32,000 nt of DNA from Psychrobacter cryohalolentis K5 (lineage in GTDB: Bacteria > Pseudomonadota > Gammaproteobacteria > Pseudomonadales > Moraxellaceae), in assembly GCF_000013905.1 (NCBI RefSeq), contig NC_007969.1, positions 2,610,001-2,642,000 of the forward strand, written 5' to 3'. Each line of letters opens with the position of its first letter. Positions within the stretch are counted from its first letter, which is position 1. Below the pieces are notes generated by a model that was not told where the DNA came from, ran no database searches, and worked only from the letters and a program-made list of their open reading frames with translations. Below, piece after piece: positions 4,269-11,761 of this stretch. The position numbers and the translations under genes are program-made.

Positions 4269-4679
4269 CTATGGTTTGGCAGGATAGCTTTCCCAGTAAT
4301 CAGCGATTGCTTTTGGAAAACAGTATTCTTTTGGCATCACAGTAATGGCGATGGGTACTAATATGGATTTGGTCACACCGCCGATACTGTCACAAGTGGC
4401 ATCGGTAGGTACGTCATAATAAATCACGCGCAAGGTATTCTGCGGACAGAGGTCTGAGCACTGAAAGGATTTGACCACTGCAATACCGTTATGCACGCCA
4501 ATGACCTTCTGCTGCGCACCTTCGGTTGGTGCTAATTCTTTTGGCTGGGCAGCTCGAATAAGATCAGCATCTGTTAAGATGTTTTCATTGGTAGGTAAAG
4601 AGACGCAAGCGCTTAGACTTAAAAACAAAGCACTTAAAGTGAGGGCTTTTGTAGTTGATGTTGTTTTCACAGTGAACAT
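4269..4679 (-). CDS. hypothetical lipoprotein (Cys-rich)
   Basis: 136-aa ORF with signal peptide and lipobox LSAC. A strong GAGGAG RBS overlaps the end of the upstream vWA gene (16-nt spacer), implying co-transcription. Confidence 0.7.
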   Translation of the reverse strand: MFTVKTTSTTKALTLSALFLSLSACVSLPTNENILTDADLIRAAQPKELAPTEGAQQKVIGVHNGIAVVKSFQCSDLCPQNTLRVIYYDVPTDATCDSIGGVTKSILVPIAITVMPKEYCFPKAIADYWESYPAKP

Positions 4680-4695: not shown

Positions 4696-5991
4696 TTATG
4701 ATGTTATCAATCCAATCTTACGAGCTTCTTTTAGCCAGCTTGGGAACTCTTCTAGCATACTCTCATAAAGAGACTCTTCACTAATGTCATCCAAATCATC
4801 TAATTCAAAAAAATCGCAATTATCAATCACGCGCCCTTCCATGTCATCTAGTTTTTTTAGGATGCCATAACCACGACCACCCAAGCCCACAAACTGCCAA
4901 AATATCGGTAGTTTCGCGGCGTCCGTCATGACTCTGGTGATACCGCGATTGTCATTCACCCCGCCATCACTGATAAATAGCACGTATACGGGCACATCCA
5001 AGCCGTCTTTTTGATAAAAATCCGTCACGGCTTTCATGACTTCTGCTTCATTGTTAATGCGCGGGCCAAGTGCCCATTTGCGCCAGCCACCATGAGCGTT
5101 ATTGATGAAACCGTCATAGTTGCTAAGCCCAATCTCGCCCAAATACTGCGGATCTCGGGCAAACGCCCAGCAGTCTAGCGCTTGGTCGTCATCGAAGCTC
5201 ACTGCCAATGGCAATATGCGGTTGACCACTTCTTGCACGCGGCCTTTTTTGTACTGTCTGTTCATTGAGCCTGAGGCATCTAACACCAATGCTACCTTTG
5301 CGGTCAATTTCTGCAATTGGCGTTTCTCAAGCGATATCGTGGCTTTTTTGGCCAGATTGACGAGTTTTGGCGCTTTGTCTAGCATGACCTTCTCTAATGA
5401 CGGTTTTGCTTTAACTGGCGTGACGGTCGCCTCTACTGCTTGTGGGCTGCCCTCTTCTACATCGCCACCGAAATGCTGCACGATGGCGGCAAGTCCACCA
5501 TTAAAGCCTTGCGCGACGTTGGACACTCGCCAAACGCCACTCTTACGATAAAGCTGCATCAACATACTGGCTTGCTGCTGGGCAAAATCTACTGCTTGAT
5601 ATTCTGCCTGTACCTTTTGCGATTGCTGCCAAATACCAATCTCTAACGATTGAATTTGATTGAGCGGGGTGTCGGCTGATAACACAAAAAACAAGCTGTC
5701 TATATTGGTAGCCAGTTTGGATAAATTCACTTCAAACTCAGCTTGGATACCTTTATTCGCCGTTGGCTGCGATTCGTAATGGGTGAGCTTGATTTGCCCA
5801 CATGGAGAGGTCGGCTGATTATAAAACACCATGTAATCATCATTGATCAGTTTGCCCGCTGCATCTAAGGCAAAGCAACTGATGTCCATCTCTATTGGGC
5901 TTTGGCGAGTGAATTTGAGCGTGATTGGTGCGGTATCGTCAATAGCAAGATTGCTTAAAGGCGAGCGTTGTCCGACGGTGAGATGGTTCAT
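4696..5991 (-). CDS. TerD-domain / vWA (TerF-like) fusion protein
   Basis: The N-terminal region resembles TerD (DISCFALDAAGKLINDDYMVFYNQPTSPCGQIKL). The C-terminal vWA has a MIDAS DASGS motif (VALVLDASGSM). The ORF opens at 6009, but AAGGAA sits 5 nt before the ATG at 5991, so 5991 is my preferred start. Confidence 0.8.
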   Translation of the reverse strand: MNHLTVGQRSPLSNLAIDDTAPITLKFTRQSPIEMDISCFALDAAGKLINDDYMVFYNQPTSPCGQIKLTHYESQPTANKGIQAEFEVNLSKLATNIDSLFFVLSADTPLNQIQSLEIGIWQQSQKVQAEYQAVDFAQQQASMLMQLYRKSGVWRVSNVAQGFNGGLAAIVQHFGGDVEEGSPQAVEATVTPVKAKPSLEKVMLDKAPKLVNLAKKATISLEKRQLQKLTAKVALVLDASGSMNRQYKKGRVQEVVNRILPLAVSFDDDQALDCWAFARDPQYLGEIGLSNYDGFINNAHGGWRKWALGPRINNEAEVMKAVTDFYQKDGLDVPVYVLFISDGGVNDNRGITRVMTDAAKLPIFWQFVGLGGRGYGILKKLDDMEGRVIDNCDFFELDDLDDISEESLYESMLEEFPSWLKEARKIGLITS

Positions 5992-6030
5992 GGTGTTCCT
6001 TACATTCATAAAGATAATTATAAAAATAAT

Positions 6031-6046
6031 AGCGCACTAAAGCGCT
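6031..6046 (-). terminator. weak hairpin downstream of the STAND gene
   Basis: 5-bp GC stem agcgc/gcgct with a 6-nt loop, followed on the minus strand by an AT/T-rich run. It is short and may not terminate efficiently. Confidence 0.3.
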
Positions 6047-6050
6047 TCTA

Positions 6051-8471
6051 CTAGTTTTTAAACTTCATGTCGTTCAATCTCTTTAAAGATAAATTATGAT
6101 ATCGTACTGCATCATCTCTAATCTTAGCCTCATAGCCCGTAATAGCTTCACTCTTGGTGTTATATCCAATCTTGTTAAAAAATTTAATAGCTTCATTATA
6201 TAGGCTAACAGCATATTTATTATCACTTGAATTTTTTGCAATCTGATACCTTGCAATACCTTTTCTAAGAAAAACAAATGATTCAGACCTACCTTTCTTA
6301 ACACAAAGCTCTATAAACTCATCACCTTTTTTAATATTTTTTAGCTTGTAATAAGATAAAGCTACATTAACCATAGCATCAATATTATTTTGATCTAACT
6401 CAAATGCTTTTTCGGATAATAATAATGCTTTTTCAAAATTATTTGTTTTATTAATTAAAAGCCAAGCATAACGGTCATATAAATATGAGTTTATAGGATC
6501 ATCAACCAGAGCTAGTTCGTACATCTCAATAGCTTTGTCAATTTCTCCACGATCTGTGTGACTTTTAGCAAATCTAGCATATTCAGACCTAAATGCTTCT
6601 GAAACCCTATCAGTTTTGTAGCTTTTTTCCATTTCTTGTAGCTTTTTTCCATACAATTCAGCCTTTTGTGCCTTACTCTTAATATCGTCTTGTACATATT
6701 TAGTATAACTTGAGAATTGCTTTTTAAAGAACATCTGTGCCAAACTTACTATTTCGAAAATAAACTCTGAACCAAAATCAGTTATATTAGCGAAATAGGT
6801 TTCCTCATAAGCTTGAGTAAACTCTTCCTTATTAATTTCAACGAGTTGATAAATCTTATCCAGAACTCGATTATTAATTTCATGGTCAACATGAATAATT
6901 ACTAAGAAAACCTTTCTTTGAAGTTCATTCATCCTTAGCCAAGCATCTTCGTATAAGAATTCTAACAACTCTTCGTTTGAAAATTTGTAAAACTTATTCA
7001 AACCTTCATCTATGCCAGATTGAGAGTGTTTCATATATTTAACATATGCTTCAATAAGTAAGGGTTTATACATTAGTTTTTTGACAATTTTTCTTAATCT
7101 ATTTTCTCCAGCCTTATTAAGAGATTCTGCATTATAACGCGCAGATAGATTTTTCATAAGCTCTACGCTTTCAGACTCATTTAAACCTTCTATGAGTATT
7201 GGTTCGGCTTGTATTATTTCTCTTCTTCTAGAAGTTATAATAACTCTTGCGATATTTTTTGATATATATTTAACCCTCTCAGACAACTCCTTAACCTCAG
7301 TTGGAGAATTAGCTAAAGTTTCAGAATTATCAATAATTAGGAGAATATCATCTCTATTTATTTTATTTTTCTGTAGAATATTTTTTGCTTTGTCTACTAA
7401 TGCTCTACCATCAATACCGTACCATTCCTTAGATAAATCCGTCTGAGTCTTTACAATTTCTCGGATACAGTCATCAACCATTGGCTGTGCAGATTGAAAA
7501 TAAACTAAACCATCTTCAGTCCATTTAGTTTTCTTTGCAGAGTAATAACAAATGTATAATGGATTATTATTTTCTATTTCAAAATCACCATCTAAAAATT
7601 GGTTTAAAGACTCTAATATAAAAGTAGTTTTACCATATCCCCCATCACCATAAATAAGACAGACTCTTGAGTCTACATCGCTGTACCATTCTGTTAGTGT
7701 ATTAAGCTCTTTATTTCTACCATGAAATGAATCAGTTTGTCGGACTGGTATATTATGAAATAGAATATCGTTGCTTTCGTTATTTATTTCTACTAAGTCA
7801 TAACCTCGATTAGTATTTATACGTTCTATATTAAAAATTCGTGAATTATTTAAACCAAAGCTAAATTCTTCTGAATCAGTTATATTCAGTGTTTGACCCT
7901 TTAATCTCCATAAACCTTTTCTTTGTTTAATGGAGATAATCACAAATGGCTCTTCTTGATATAGTAACGGAATCGATATCTTGTGTTCATCAATTACCTT
8001 TAATTTGTTGTCAACTGATGGAATCAACCTCTCGCAAACCTCAAGTATCCTAGATGAAAGACTTATTAGCTTAGGTGCCCATTCTTCCGACTTTTTTAAA
8101 TCCAATACCCCATGTCCAGAAGAGGAGTTTCTAAACTCAATAAAATTGCGTAATTCATCCGCTAAGCTTATATTATCTTTTTTTTCAAACCATCCATCCA
8201 TAAACCTCTCATCAATATCAGTTCTAAATTTAGGAACTAAGTAATCCAAAATTTCATAAGGCAGTCCATCGGATGGTTTTTGAATCCTATCTATAAAGTC
8301 GGTAAGTCTTTCATCTTCCTCTAATCTTAATATAGATGTGGATATATCCAGACTTGTGAGAGCTATAACTTGTGTTAATGAGCGTATCAACGAGAATAGT
8401 GCATTACATTTTTCAATAACTGAGCTAATAGATGCTATTTCATCCAATTTAATATTGTATAAGCTTTTCAT
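6051..8471 (-). CDS. STAND (NB-ARC-like) P-loop NTPase with N-terminal HEPN-like helical domain and C-terminal TPR repeats; candidate NLR/Avs-like defence protein
   Basis: 806-aa ORF. The motifs run in order: FHGRNKELNTLTEW (aa 249-262), Walker A GDGGYGKTT (aa 275-283, nt 7623..7649), Walker B ILLIIDNSE (aa 376-384), RVIITSRRRE (aa 409-418), YKPLLIEA (aa 468-475). TPR-like repeats span about aa 640-790 (nt ~6102..6554). An RNSSSGH motif sits at aa 114-120 (nt 8112..8132). Hand counts of sampled 60-nt lines give about 23-27% G+C, against about 45-57% in the neighbouring genes. Confidence 0.85.
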   Translation of the reverse strand: MKSLYNIKLDEIASISSVIEKCNALFSLIRSLTQVIALTSLDISTSILRLEEDERLTDFIDRIQKPSDGLPYEILDYLVPKFRTDIDERFMDGWFEKKDNISLADELRNFIEFRNSSSGHGVLDLKKSEEWAPKLISLSSRILEVCERLIPSVDNKLKVIDEHKISIPLLYQEEPFVIISIKQRKGLWRLKGQTLNITDSEEFSFGLNNSRIFNIERINTNRGYDLVEINNESNDILFHNIPVRQTDSFHGRNKELNTLTEWYSDVDSRVCLIYGDGGYGKTTFILESLNQFLDGDFEIENNNPLYICYYSAKKTKWTEDGLVYFQSAQPMVDDCIREIVKTQTDLSKEWYGIDGRALVDKAKNILQKNKINRDDILLIIDNSETLANSPTEVKELSERVKYISKNIARVIITSRRREIIQAEPILIEGLNESESVELMKNLSARYNAESLNKAGENRLRKIVKKLMYKPLLIEAYVKYMKHSQSGIDEGLNKFYKFSNEELLEFLYEDAWLRMNELQRKVFLVIIHVDHEINNRVLDKIYQLVEINKEEFTQAYEETYFANITDFGSEFIFEIVSLAQMFFKKQFSSYTKYVQDDIKSKAQKAELYGKKLQEMEKSYKTDRVSEAFRSEYARFAKSHTDRGEIDKAIEMYELALVDDPINSYLYDRYAWLLINKTNNFEKALLLSEKAFELDQNNIDAMVNVALSYYKLKNIKKGDEFIELCVKKGRSESFVFLRKGIARYQIAKNSSDNKYAVSLYNEAIKFFNKIGYNTKSEAITGYEAKIRDDAVRYHNLSLKRLNDMKFKN
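6613..6652 (-). repeat. 20-bp tandem direct repeat (2 units, 18/20 identical) inside the STAND gene
   Basis: gttttgtagcttttttccat / ttcttgtagcttttttccat. On the coding strand, atggaaaaaagctacaa occurs twice at a 20-nt period, so it is read in two different frames (YGKKLQ and MEKSYK). Confidence 0.8.
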
Positions 8472-8531
8472 AAATTATCTCGAGTCTGAAGCTAAAAAGT
8501 AGGTAGTATTGTAATAAATTCTTAGGTGACT

Positions 8532-8623
8532 ATTGAGAGCTTTCATCTACGGCGTTAACTGCCATTCTAGCTCTGCCAGTTTCGCTTTTTCGGCATCGAC
8601 CACTTCGGCAGGTGCTTTACTGA
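8532..8623 (-). pseudogene. decayed duplicate of the valS 3' end (last ~30 codons), non-functional fragment
   Basis: 8560..8623 aligns by hand with valS 8853..8916 at about 57/64 identities. Read in the valS frame it gives [24 protein letters not shown] then a stop (cta at 8547..8549). Relative to the real end there are two 9-nt gaps. Confidence 0.75.
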
Positions 8624-8747
8624 TGATAATTTTTGCAGCTTATAAAGATATATTCGAGCTAATCTCAATAGGATATAGATAATAGCACACAAATATTCAG
8701 TATTTGGCAGTACTAATAGTTCTTTAGAGAACCAACTAGTAGACAAT

Positions 8748-8781
8748 AAAAAACGCCATCATAAATATGACAGCGTTTTTT
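8748..8781 (-). terminator. rho-independent terminator of valS (bidirectional shape)
   Basis: On the minus strand the stem is aacgctgtcat / atgatggcgtt, with two G-U pairs and a 4-nt loop, followed by a T6 run. It lies 26 nt after the valS stop. Confidence 0.65.
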
Positions 8782-8806
8782 ATTACTATAGATATTTACG
8801 CTTTAT

Positions 8807-11761
8807 TTACAACGCTTTCAACTGCTCCATCTGCGCCGTCATTGCCGTCAACTGTCCTTCTAGCTCAGCCAGTTTCGCCTTCTCAGCATCGACCACTTCC
8901 GCAGGTGCTTTACTGACAAAGCCTTCATTGCCTAGCTTACGGGCGATGCCTTCCGCTTGACCTTTCAACTTATCATATGACTTACCCAAACGTGCCAGCT
9001 CAGCCGTTGGATCAATCAGACCTTTCATCGGTACGAGTACACGTAGCTGACCGACCATACTTGATGACGATAGCGGCACTTCATCGCCTTCTTTGACGAT
9101 CTCTAAGCTCTCGACTTTGGCAAGCGCTTTGAACTGGTTTTTGATGCGTGATAGACGCGCATCTTCATCAGCAGAGATATTTTGTAGTAGTACTGGCAGA
9201 CGTACCGCGTTGCCCAGTTTCATCTCACCACGGATATTACGGACACTAGCGATTAGCTCCTGTAGCCACGCCATATCTGCCTCAACTTGCTCACTGATTT
9301 GTGCATCATCCGTTTTTGGATAGTCAGCGACTACGATGCTGTCAGTGTTTTTGCGACCCAATAGCGGTGCGACCGTCTGCCAGATTTGCTCAGTCAGATA
9401 CGGCATGATTGGATGACTAAAGCGTAGCGCTGTCTCTAGCACGTGCAGCAGTACATAGCGGATTTGCGCTTTACGTTCCTCTGATACCGAGTCATCATTT
9501 AGACTGGCTTTGGCAAGCTCAACGTACCAATCACAGTACTCGTTCCAGATAAACTCATAGATATCTTGGCTGACCATATCGAGACGATACTGAGCGAAAT
9601 GCTGATGGATATCGGCAACGGTAGAGTTCAGACGACTCATGATCCATTTTTCTGGTAATTCCCATACATCAGGATTCGCCGCTTGGTCGATAGGCTTGGC
9701 ATTGCCTTCGCTATCAACACAGTTCATGAGTACAAAACGGCTGGCGTTCCAGATTTTATTACAGAAGTTGCGATAGCCCTCGACACGCTTTAGATCAAAG
9801 TTAATATCGCGACCCGTACTGGCCAATGAGGTAAAGGTGAAGCGCAGTGCATCGGTACCAAAGGCTGGGATGCCTTCAGGGAACTCTTTACGCGTTTGCT
9901 TCTCAATCTTGGCCGCGTCTTTTGGATTCATCATGTTGCTGGTACGTTTTTCTACCAGCGCTTCCAGATCAATACCATCGATGAGGTCAATCGGATCTAA
10001 GACGTTACCTTTAGATTTTGACATTTTTTGACCATTGCCATCACGTACCAGACCATGCACATAGACAGTCTTAAACGGTACTTGCGGCGTGCCGTCTTCG
10101 TTTTTCACGAAGTGCATGGTCATCATGATCATGCGGGCAACCCAAAAGAAGATAATGTCAAAACCCGTCACCAACACGCTGGTCGGGTGGAAGGTGTCCA
10201 TCACGCGTGGATCAGCGTTGACGTCTGCCCAGTCAAGCGTACTGAACGTCCATAGACCAGAACTGAACCACGTATCGAGCACGTCATTATCTTGGCGCAA
10301 TACGATATCATCGCTTAGACTGTACTTGCTACGCACTTCCGCTTCGTCACGGGCGACATAGATTTCACCCGTCGCATCGTCATACCATGCAGGGATACGA
10401 TGACCCCACCACAACTGACGGCTGATGCACCAATCTTGCAGATCGGTCATCCACGACATATACATGTTTTTGTACTGCGCAGGGACGAACTCGATGCTGC
10501 CGTCTTCTACTGCGTCAATCGCAGGCTTGGCCAACTCTTTAACCGCGACATACCACTGATCGGTCAACCACGGCTCAACGATCGTACCGCCACGCTCAGC
10601 ACGTGGGGCTTTGAGTGCATAGTCTTCGATATCTTCTAGCCAGCCCTGCTCGCCTGCTTGCTCAACAAGGAATTTACGCGCCGCAAAACGCTCAAGTCCA
10701 GCGTATTCACTTGGCGTGGTTTCTAATGTTGGCTCACGTGTTTGTAGATCAGGATAAACTTCCATCGCTGGCAAAATGTTAGCGCGCTCATCAAGGATAT
10801 TAATCAATGGCAAGTTATGACGACGACCAAGTTCATAGTCATTAAAGTCATGGGCTGGGGTGATTTTTACGCAACCGGTACCAAATTCGATATCAACATA
10901 ATCATCGGCAACGATAGGCACAATGCGACCAGTGATTGGCAAGGTAATGGTTTTGCCAATCAAATGCGCGTAACGCTCGTCCTTTGGATTGACGGCAACG
11001 GCGGTGTCACCCAGTAAGGTTTCAGGGCGCGTGGTGGCGACGACCAGATAGTTTTTGCCCTCTTGGGTTTGCAACTCTTTATCAGTGAAATGATAGCGGA
11101 AATGCCATAAGCTGCCTTTTTCATCGACGTTTTCTACTTCCAAATCCGATAGCGCCGTTTGGAACTTAGGATCCCAGTTGACCAGACGCTTACCACGATA
11201 GATAAGTCCATCGTCGAACAGGCGTACGAACACTTCTTTTACCGCATTAGACAAACCGTCATCCATGGTAAAGCGCTCACGTGACCAATCAACCGAGCTG
11301 CCCAAACGGCGAATTTGGCTGGTGATATTACCGCCCGACTCTTCTTTCCATTCCCATACTTTATCGATGAAATCTTCACGCGTCATATCACGGCGCTTGA
11401 TACCTTGCGCCTCCAAACGACGCTCAACGACCATTTGGGTCGCGATACCTGCATGATCCGTACCTGGCTGCCAAAGCGTGTTGTCGCCATCCATGCGGTG
11501 GTAACGTGTGAGCGCATCCATGATTGCATTGTTAAAACCATGACCCATATGCAGCGAGCCAGTGACGTTCGGTGGCGGCAAGGCAATAGAAAATGACTCG
11601 TCTTTGTCAAAAGTCGGCTGGAAATAGCCGCTTTCTTCCCAACCTTGATACATGCCCGCTTCGACTTCCGCAGGATTATAGGCGTTTTCAAGTTGGCTAA
11701 GTGCCGCTTGGATAAATTGGGTCAGGTTAGTTTTGCTGCTTTGAATATCAGGAGTGCTCAT
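8807..11761 (-). CDS. valS: valine--tRNA ligase
   Basis: 984-aa ORF with class I HIGH motif ([11 protein letters not shown]), KMSKS motif ([10 protein letters not shown]) and the C-terminal coiled coil typical of ValRS. Confidence 0.98.

Follow-up and report, generated by a model that had tools for sequence, protein, structure and literature searches.

A Decayed Copy of the valS 3′ End as a Probable Homology Arm for Cassette Exchange beside a STAND Gene in Psychrobacter

Introduction

How does a gene come to lie next to a broken second copy of the end of its neighbor? In Psychrobacter cryohalolentis K5 this question is raised by a STAND NTPase gene (6051..8471, reverse strand; 806 aa) and by the valyl-tRNA synthetase gene valS upstream of it (8807..11761, reverse strand; 984 aa), both located in a 32,000-nt stretch of contig NC_007969.1 (positions 2,610,001 to 2,642,000). 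This stretch is called the window, and all coordinates refer to it unless another locus is named. In the interval under study, valS, which matches Pfam tRNA-synt_1 (1e-149), Anticodon_1 and Val_tRNA-synt_C, represents the left core flank, and a TerF-like gene with TerD and vWA domains according to Pfam (terF; 4696..5991, reverse strand) the right one. An earlier note, made from the letters alone, had described a decayed second copy of the valS 3′ end beside the STAND gene and had read it as the scar of an insertion or a cassette replacement. The comparison with related loci makes it likely, in our view, that the segment 8532-8623 is a non-coding, mosaic pseudo-copy of the last ~108 nt of valS, and that it has served as a homology arm for cassette exchange in a one-gene slot free of mobile elements.

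The related loci that were compared with the window are labelled L005 to L122. L005-L014 represent nine other Psychrobacter species and Moraxella porci (L005, P. immobilis; L009, P. aquaticus CMS 56; L012, P. faecalis DSM 14664; L014, M. porci), L089-L096 come from eight different assemblies with three different valS backgrounds, and L110-L116 are seven further loci that were found by scanning metagenome contigs with a conserved 22-nt spacer motif. The contigs of L008, L009 and L012 end within the slot, and a few cargo open reading frames (ORFs) have no Pfam match of any kind. The closest valS relatives of the window belong to Psychrobacter species; in GCA_904845985.1 valS is called identically, and the locus is identical to that of the window. 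Copies of the valS end were searched for with an nhmmer profile built from ten Psychrobacter valS 3′ ends, and breakpoints were located by pairwise mismatch maps of aligned loci.

The valS Pseudo-Copy

The last part of valS is present twice, in the same orientation and 293 nt apart. Local alignment and a repeat search delimit a direct repeat of 71 nt, in which the true valS end (8846..8916, reverse strand) and the second copy (8553-8623) are identical at 63 positions (89%). The fragment matches the true end with a BLASTN E value of 5.5e-20 and is also recovered by the valS-end profile (E = 2.7e-19, profile positions 68-144), which bears out the decayed copy that had been proposed by eye. The hand count of 57 identical positions among the 64 in 8560-8623 was right as well, with exactly 7 mismatches. 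When the copy is read in the valS frame, a premature TAG stop codon is encountered at 8549-8547, where it had been placed before. As to the two 9-nt gaps of the hand alignment, the first, after ACG, is clear, while the second represents only one possible alignment and is uncertain. In the tail of the fragment, GATGAAAGCTCTCAATAG, homology is recognizable only by comparison with other versions of the fragment. At the opposite end, no significant valS homology continues upstream of 8623/8626 into the spacer, either in the window or in L090 (window score 18 versus a shuffle mean of 17), and at the spacer|valS junction the homology is perhaps 2-3 nt longer (GTC/ATC before AGTAAAG). The fragment ends 60 nt upstream of the STAND ATG at 8471, at the distance previously given, and the intervening segment (8472..8531, reverse strand) is read from the sequence as the STAND leader, or 5′ untranslated region (UTR).

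The two copies differ mainly at synonymous sites, as had been stated. Six of the seven changed codons are synonymous (GCG/GCC, GCT/GCC, GAG/GAA, AAG/AAA, GCT/GCA and TTG/TTA), the sole non-synonymous difference in the repeat being GGA/TGG, Gly to Trp. The expected synonymous share of random single-base changes at these codons is 24%, which gives a binomial P of 0.0011. This significant bias argues against a recent duplication in situ.

Versions of the Fragment in Other Lineages

A second valS-end copy was detected by the profile search in seven kinds of locus. Copies that start at profile positions 65-73 are found in the window, L089/90, L012, L111 and L115, and those of L009 and L097 start at positions 51 and 27, respectively. 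The first five versions begin at valS −108 to −111 and are preceded by a homologous spacer, which in the window occupies 8624..8672 (reverse strand), between the 22-nt motif and the fragment, and is matched in L089-96, L012, L111 and L115. The sequence ...TATAAGCTGCAAAAA.TATC.T. directly before AGTAAAG is common to these loci. Four different cargos lie downstream: the STAND gene in the window and L089-96; in L012 a zinc-ribbon/pentapeptide-type gene whose ATG overlaps the fragment stop codon; in L111 an alternative valS-downstream element, also known from L006/L010, followed by two small genes; and in L115 a 144-aa gene, followed by a second block of terminator and conserved spacer (T1 block, see below) and another cargo. 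Given the same start and the homologous spacer, the five versions descend from one ancestral junction, and since this junction is common to at least five lineages with four cargos, it is older than the arrival of the STAND gene in this strain. The fragment can therefore still be regarded as a recombination scar, but not as one made when the STAND gene entered here.

The versions are preserved to different degrees. That of L111 extends in full to the stop codon with hardly any damage, those of L012 and L115 carry deletions and amino-acid changes of their own, and those of L089-96 are heavily decayed in their 5′ half. L009 and L097 contain independent copies with other boundaries, that of L097 spanning −153 to −2 at about 70% identity. 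In L009 (11053-12205), an NYN/HEC-09 cassette with its own terminator is located between the intact valS and the second valS-end copy; this copy runs from −130, shows a 9-nt deletion between ACGGCG repeats and is followed by the native terminator and the motif, inside which the contig ends. A fragment in a locus without any inserted gene was also looked for, and every fragment-bearing locus among those sampled proved to hold cargo.

A Mosaic Fragment and Its Breakpoints

The window fragment is a mosaic, whose 3′ part came with the STAND cassette and whose 5′ part, together with the spacer, belongs to the recipient slot. The mismatch map against L089/90/94 shows three levels of divergence: 47 of about 178 columns differ (26%) from 8760 to 8583, about 1.3% from 8582 to 5951, and about 8% from 5950 on, inside terF. 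It follows from this profile that the shared tract starts inside the valS fragment and ends in the first ~40 nt of terF, with the left crossover at 8560-8583 and the right one at 5951-6072, at the terF start. The recently exchanged tract thus corresponds to 5951..8582, which is about 98.7% identical to L089-L096 between flanks that are 8-26% divergent; the STAND gene itself is likewise about 98.7% identical, versus only about 89% for valS. The 5′ part of the fragment (8583..8623, reverse strand; valS −108 to about −68) is clean, with 4 differences in 45 nt from the functional allele, all of them synonymous. Together with the spacer it is 26% divergent from the L089/L090 version, and it has its GAA and AAA states in common with the L111 fragment. 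The 3′ part (8532..8582, reverse strand) is old and decayed and contains the Gly to Trp change, the premature TAG and the deletion or deletions. It differs from L089-96 at only 3-4 positions (98-99% identity within the shared tract), and its tail is homologous to the longer fragment of L097, whose STAND is 89% identical to that of the window.

Other pairs of loci break elsewhere. L089 and L090 diverge just after the terminator, and L094 and L090 inside the real valS, 84 nt before its stop codon. Left breakpoints are thus located in the fragment, the terminator or the real valS, and right breakpoints in the first 27-41 nt of terF. Crossovers at variable points, wherever homology is available, characterize general homologous recombination and not a site-specific enzyme.

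This pattern bears directly on the two scenarios that the earlier note had left side by side. In one of them, a small integrative element with its attB in the valS 3′ end would have brought a replacement end and displaced the old one. Such an element would leave a duplicated gene 3′ end with synonymous differences, as observed, and duplicated valS ends do recur in several loci. However, the repeats bracket only the terminator and the spacer (about 220 nt), with the STAND gene downstream of both, and instead of a fixed core there are three fragment boundaries (−108/−111, −130 and at least −153) and three left breakpoint sites. The integrases that had been suggested at this junction were searched for, and neither the window nor the slots examined contained an integrase, recombinase or transposase, Pfam giving no integrase or transposase in the sizeable ORFs of the 32-kb window or in the scanned cargo ORFs (a few of which lack any match); the window contains no tRNA gene either. 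Site-specific integration is for these reasons extremely unlikely. The other scenario, in which the islet arrived with flanking valS homology, was essentially right.

A second alternative is a local tandem duplication of the valS end in this lineage, followed by neutral decay and unrelated to gene acquisition. It is favored by the short distance and direct orientation of the copies (only 293 nt), and by the resident allele type, which ranks with the best matches of the fragment. Against it stand the synonymous bias (6 of 7 changed codons, P = 0.001), the presence of the same junction, with different cargo, in species with a valS identity of 86-95%, and the 3′ half, about 99% identical to the copies of other species within a transferred tract. 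Hardly any weight can be given to this possibility. The suggestion that the fragment came from the functional valS end of another lineage or allele holds insofar as a recent duplication is disfavored; its best-matching lineage cannot be named, since none of the 20 sampled valS alleles is nearer to the fragment than the resident type (4 differences in 45 nt).

The Terminator, the T1 Block and the Conserved Motif

The sequence between valS and the fragment contains an intrinsic terminator hairpin (8745..8784, reverse strand), flanked by an A-run and a T-run and bidirectional in form. Its 19-nt arms (8745-8763 and 8766-8784) are 89% complementary, and the RNA folds with −22.5 kcal/mol (z = −6.7; 0 of 200 shuffles as stable), so that the valS terminator previously placed between the fragment and valS is real. 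From the terminator to the fragment, the DNA is AT-rich over about 121 nt. The terminator and the conserved spacer next to it form the T1 block (8673..8806, reverse strand), which represents the native valS-downstream sequence and is kept in many Psychrobacter loci to about 8673; BLASTN similarity to the window ends at 8673/8677 for L005 and L011. Similarity between loci resumes ~10-20 nt upstream of the terF start codon. Logan metagenome contigs with the identical STAND gene break at 8672/8701 and at 5973/5976, and such independent assembly breaks are expected at the edges of a strain-variable region.

Conservation between loci stops just past a 22-nt motif, GAATATTTGTGTGCTATTATCT (8677..8698, reverse strand), which includes an extended −10-like sequence, TGCTATTAT, with its hexamer at 8684-8679. 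The motif is nearly invariant in the window, L005, L011, L012, L089-96, L110-116 and L122; it occurs once in the window (0 expected by chance), and across the related 20-kb stretches it is restricted to this locus. From its sequence we infer that it may act as the promoter of the cargo slot. A simple −35/−10 promoter scan did not flag the motif and returned fewer promoter-like sites than in shuffles (9 versus 14), for which reason the promoter function is worded here as a proposal.

Some Psychrobacter lineages carry, right after the valS stop codon, an alternative conserved element of ~110 nt, AAAGCATGGCCTCAGCATCGGAGTCC... (L006:11054-11180; L010:11054-11180; L097:70-200; L111:4778-4933, reverse strand). 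It occurs once per locus and is predicted to form a long hairpin of 34 pairs, with several G-U changes and one compensatory change. Neither this element nor the region of the window has an Rfam match, and according to the fold prediction the element may be an unannotated structured RNA.

L115 (3001-3935) and L116 (295-830) each contain two terminator-plus-motif blocks around a first small cargo, followed by a second cargo and terF. These T1-cargo-T1-cargo arrays raise a third alternative, namely a dedicated cassette system in which the T1 block, perhaps together with the valS fragment, would be the site of an unlinked recombinase and would allow integron-like stacking. Besides the arrays, the near invariance of the motif, the end of conservation exactly after it and the tight insertion of cargo before the terF ribosome-binding site would all fit such a system. 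On the other hand, breakpoints occur in valS, in the terminator and in the fragment, with no clustering at the motif, which itself has the appearance of an extended −10 promoter. There is no linked recombinase, and the motif has a single occurrence in the 32-kb window and none outside this locus in any of the 20-kb loci. No IntI integrase of an integron-like array was found, and the repeated T1 blocks of L115 and L116 consist of a terminator and promoter-like sequence, no modelling aimed at attC folds having been made. A dedicated system is accordingly improbable, and general recombination between stretches of homology is preferred.

The valS-terF Interval as a Hotspot

The slot extends from just past the T1 block (~8673) to the terF ribosome-binding site (~6010). 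valS lies on the left in all loci, and terF or its 5′ remnant on the right in the window, L005, L006, L011, L089, L090, L111, L113-116 and L122; in L006, L011, L090, L111, L113-116 and L122 terF follows the cargo directly. About 20 related loci hold different cargo at this position, in the same orientation after valS, as would be expected of the recombination hotspot that the earlier note had proposed. At least 12 distinct cargos can be told apart, most of them low in guanine-cytosine (GC) content (0.26-0.40, versus 0.45-0.50 in the flanks). When the downstream site was inspected in genomes without this STAND gene, as had been recommended, other low-GC cargo was found there. Among the exact-protein matches of STAND, TerF and ValS, which comprise the same strain and short metagenome contigs only, no within-species site without the STAND gene was present.

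Several of the cargos resemble known or candidate defense genes. L005 contains a GmrSD enzyme (PADLOC HEC-06, 7e-88), L006 and L010 a small ORF with a Ser/Thr kinase (PD-T4-6, 1e-31) and L009 an NYN protein (HEC-09, 7e-26), while L011 encodes a 633-aa pentapeptide-type protein by Pfam. In L014, from M. porci, a McrB-like ATPase, an unknown protein and a TOTE-type protein are present (PDC-M16B; REase-like). In L110-L116, the stretch from the motif to terF holds a PIN_8 protein (3e-62), a second pentapeptide/zinc-ribbon protein, GmrSD again, and several proteins without a recognizable domain. The matches to HEC-06, PD-T4-6, HEC-09 and PDC-M16B indicate an enrichment in defense genes; the window STAND and several other cargos have no PADLOC match. 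Relatives of the STAND gene occur in the same interval at several distances, with 60% identity in L122, in a slot without a fragment, 75% in L105, directly after an intact valS, and 89% in L097, next to a longer and more decayed fragment. The differing cargos, and relatives at many levels of identity, show that the valS-terF interval is a long-standing hotspot for defense-type genes. The hotspot is common to Psychrobacter, and cargo on the valS side is also shown in M. porci. No description of valS or valS-terF as an integration or defense hotspot was found in the searchable literature, and the paper on Acinetobacter hotspots does not mention valS.

Two further observations concern the right flank. 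In L005 and L089, terF is cut at an identical point (window 5872), so that its first ~120 nt are left (window 5872-5991; L005:13255-13385; L089:7738-7857), the cargo being GmrSD in one case and STAND in the other. Since terF ends at 5872 in two loci with different cargo, the right side of the slot, too, has retained a relic of its flank in the form of the terF 5′ end. Directly downstream of the TerF-like gene, a conserved 136-aa ORF (4269-4679) without Pfam or NCBIfam match is syntenic with terF in several Psychrobacter loci (L005, L011).

The STAND Cargo and Its Leader

The STAND gene is supported as an acquisition, as already suggested by the earlier note, because it is low in GC (0.27-0.33, about 0.30, versus 0.45-0.50 in both flanks) and because lineages that share only about 89% identity in valS carry it at 98.7% identity. 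A terminator-like hairpin lies past its stop codon (6031..6046, reverse strand). The protein contains ATPase_2 and NB-ARC domains (residues 249-482) and TPR repeats (651-710) by Pfam, preceded by a 245-aa N-terminal domain of unknown fold. This arrangement, with an N-terminal putative effector, a STAND P-loop NTPase and C-terminal repeats, is the layout of the Avs type. Like the Avs proteins, the cargo is of a three-part design and has homologs in defense islands and in Tn7-like cargo beside CBASS. Unlike them, it matches no PADLOC model, the Avs models included, at E ≤ 0.01, so that it does not belong to a described Avs family, and an antiviral function is putative. A sequence comparison with the PDB returned the TPR repeats only.

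The N-terminal domain (7737-8471, residues 1-245) is modelled with a predicted local distance difference test score (pLDDT) of 85 as six helices and, after them, a small beta domain; no match was obtained in Pfam or, by Foldseek, among PDB folds (best E = 0.39). Within it, R114, N115, H120 and G121, at a helix end, are invariant among 30 STAND homologs (consensus FRNKRxGHG). The R-x5-H spacing presumably resembles the HEPN RNase motif, a likeness to be taken as a lead only. In more distant relatives, STAND homologs with 49-54% identity represent the first or the last cargo gene of Tn7-like transposons (L106:1-10415; L117-L121:1-14415). One type of carrier encodes TnsA/B/C and TniQ and adjoins a CBASS operon in Acinetobacter baumannii, and the other encodes TnsC/D/E together with DUF87-NurA and a methyltransferase.

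The position of the fragment in the STAND leader raises the possibility that it has been kept for a function of its own, as a leader or upstream ORF (uORF) that couples or regulates translation of the cargo, or as a structured 5′ UTR. In all loci with the shared junction, the fragment has the promoter-like motif upstream of it and the start of the cargo downstream. In the window, a 23-codon uORF, MKALNSHLRIYYNTTYFLASDSR (8475-8546), extends from a relic valS Met codon to 3 nt short of the STAND ATG, and in L012 a 7-codon relic ORF ending in TAATG overlaps the cargo start. Against a function, the fragment has changed more rapidly than the STAND gene beside it (about 70% versus 89% identity in L097), the length and position of the uORF are not conserved, each version has different stops and deletions, and many slots do without a fragment (L005, L011, L113, L114, L122). 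As the uORF length is not kept in L097, the uORF itself is probably incidental. A structured RNA formed by leader and fragment was considered and rejected (z = +0.9; no Rfam match). Retention for a function is therefore decidedly improbable, and use as a homology arm is the reading that we follow here.

A Possible Route of Origin and Exchange

The pseudo-copy would have arisen once, by an illegitimate, duplicative join that put a valS 3′ end and its downstream cargo behind the valS-terminator-promoter block of another lineage. From then on, the fragment, the real valS end, the T1 block and the 5′ end of terF would have offered homology for RecA-type double crossovers that swap one cassette for another, the incoming DNA being most likely taken up by natural transformation. 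The fragment lineage would have begun from another valS allele, and crossovers with the functional valS ends of donors would re-import selected sequence, as in L111. Such re-import would explain the synonymous differences. The fragment itself would be without function and would be transcribed only within the cargo leader.

Several points weigh against this model or limit it. The sample comprises ~22 loci, several of which are short metagenome contigs. No sampled valS allele contains all four of the synonymous states that are specific to the fragment, and consequently the clean 5′ part could also stem from gene conversion by the resident valS, followed by replacement of the allele. The tandem arrays of L115 and L116 and the structure of L009 need duplicative events, and not simple double crossovers. 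The origin of the junction in an illegitimate join is read from its anatomy, and the DNA could have entered by transformation, transduction or conjugation.

A bolder extension can be formulated, although it is unlikely. The T1 block and the portable valS-end fragment might constitute an integrase-free landing pad. Single defense genes would reach it together with a short stretch of the pad and would be taken in, placed under the resident promoter and lined up in tandem, as in L115 and L116, with natural transformation and RecA as the sole machinery required. If true, this would represent a functional analogue of the integron, built from homology arms and maintained by selection for the exchange of defense genes.

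Relation to Known Systems

Displaced gene ends are familiar from integrative elements that duplicate the 3′ end of their target gene, such as e14 at icd and the islands at tRNA and tmRNA genes. There, as here, a non-functional gene 3′ end lies displaced beside acquired DNA and differs from the functional one mainly at synonymous sites, because the replacement end has evolved elsewhere as a functional allele. Unlike those elements, the valS slot lacks an integrase, its cargo is not bracketed by the repeats, and its crossovers are variable.

Closer parallels are provided by hotspots without mobile elements. It has been established that such hotspots diversify by recombination at flanking core genes and that they are commoner in transformable species (PMC5635113). 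The valS-terF slot shares with them its conserved core flanks, the rapid turnover among close relatives, the lack of integrases and transposases, breakpoints in the flanks and a transformable genus, a Psychrobacter isolate having been naturally transformed in vitro (PMC3364145). It differs in that it usually holds one gene and contains an internal terminator/promoter block and a displaced pseudo-copy of the flank as an extra arm; the study of those hotspots was statistical and does not describe this locus. Core defense hotspots without a mobilizing mechanism have also been reported (Johnson et al. 2023, PMC10250203). Like the cDHS1/2 of Pseudomonas aeruginosa (PMC10250203), the slot is always occupied, marked by core genes, low in GC and rich in known or candidate defense genes, with no single mobilizing mechanism. 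On the other hand, the cDHS1/2 are large regions (median 26 kb) in which transposases or prophage genes are frequent, whereas the valS-terF slot measures 0.5-3 kb and no mobility gene was seen in it; genus and flanks differ as well.

For the origin of the junction, homology-facilitated illegitimate recombination is a plausible route by analogy, and the likeness concerns this step and not the subsequent exchanges of cassettes. As a rule, the process is described as deleting recipient DNA and not as duplicating it. It is reported from Acinetobacter baylyi, as cited in PMC8116780, and thus from the same family, Moraxellaceae. A one-sided homologous anchor combined with an illegitimate join would fit the spacer|valS(−108) junction as well as the copies of L009 and L097.

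Biological Significance

Core-gene-flanked recombination hotspots in transformable bacteria are already established, and the finding therefore illustrates and extends known biology and changes no principle. It provides a base-pair-resolved example of a defense gene that moves between species without a mobile element, with one crossover visible in a 90-nt relic of the essential gene valS and the other in the first 40 nt of terF. Moreover, it indicates that the displaced pseudo-copy of a flanking gene can be retained and come into use again as a homology arm, acquiring on the way synonymous differences that look selected, which calls for caution when such scars are dated. For Psychrobacter, the valS-terF interval, several of whose cargos have no known domain, represents a place to look for new single-gene defense systems.

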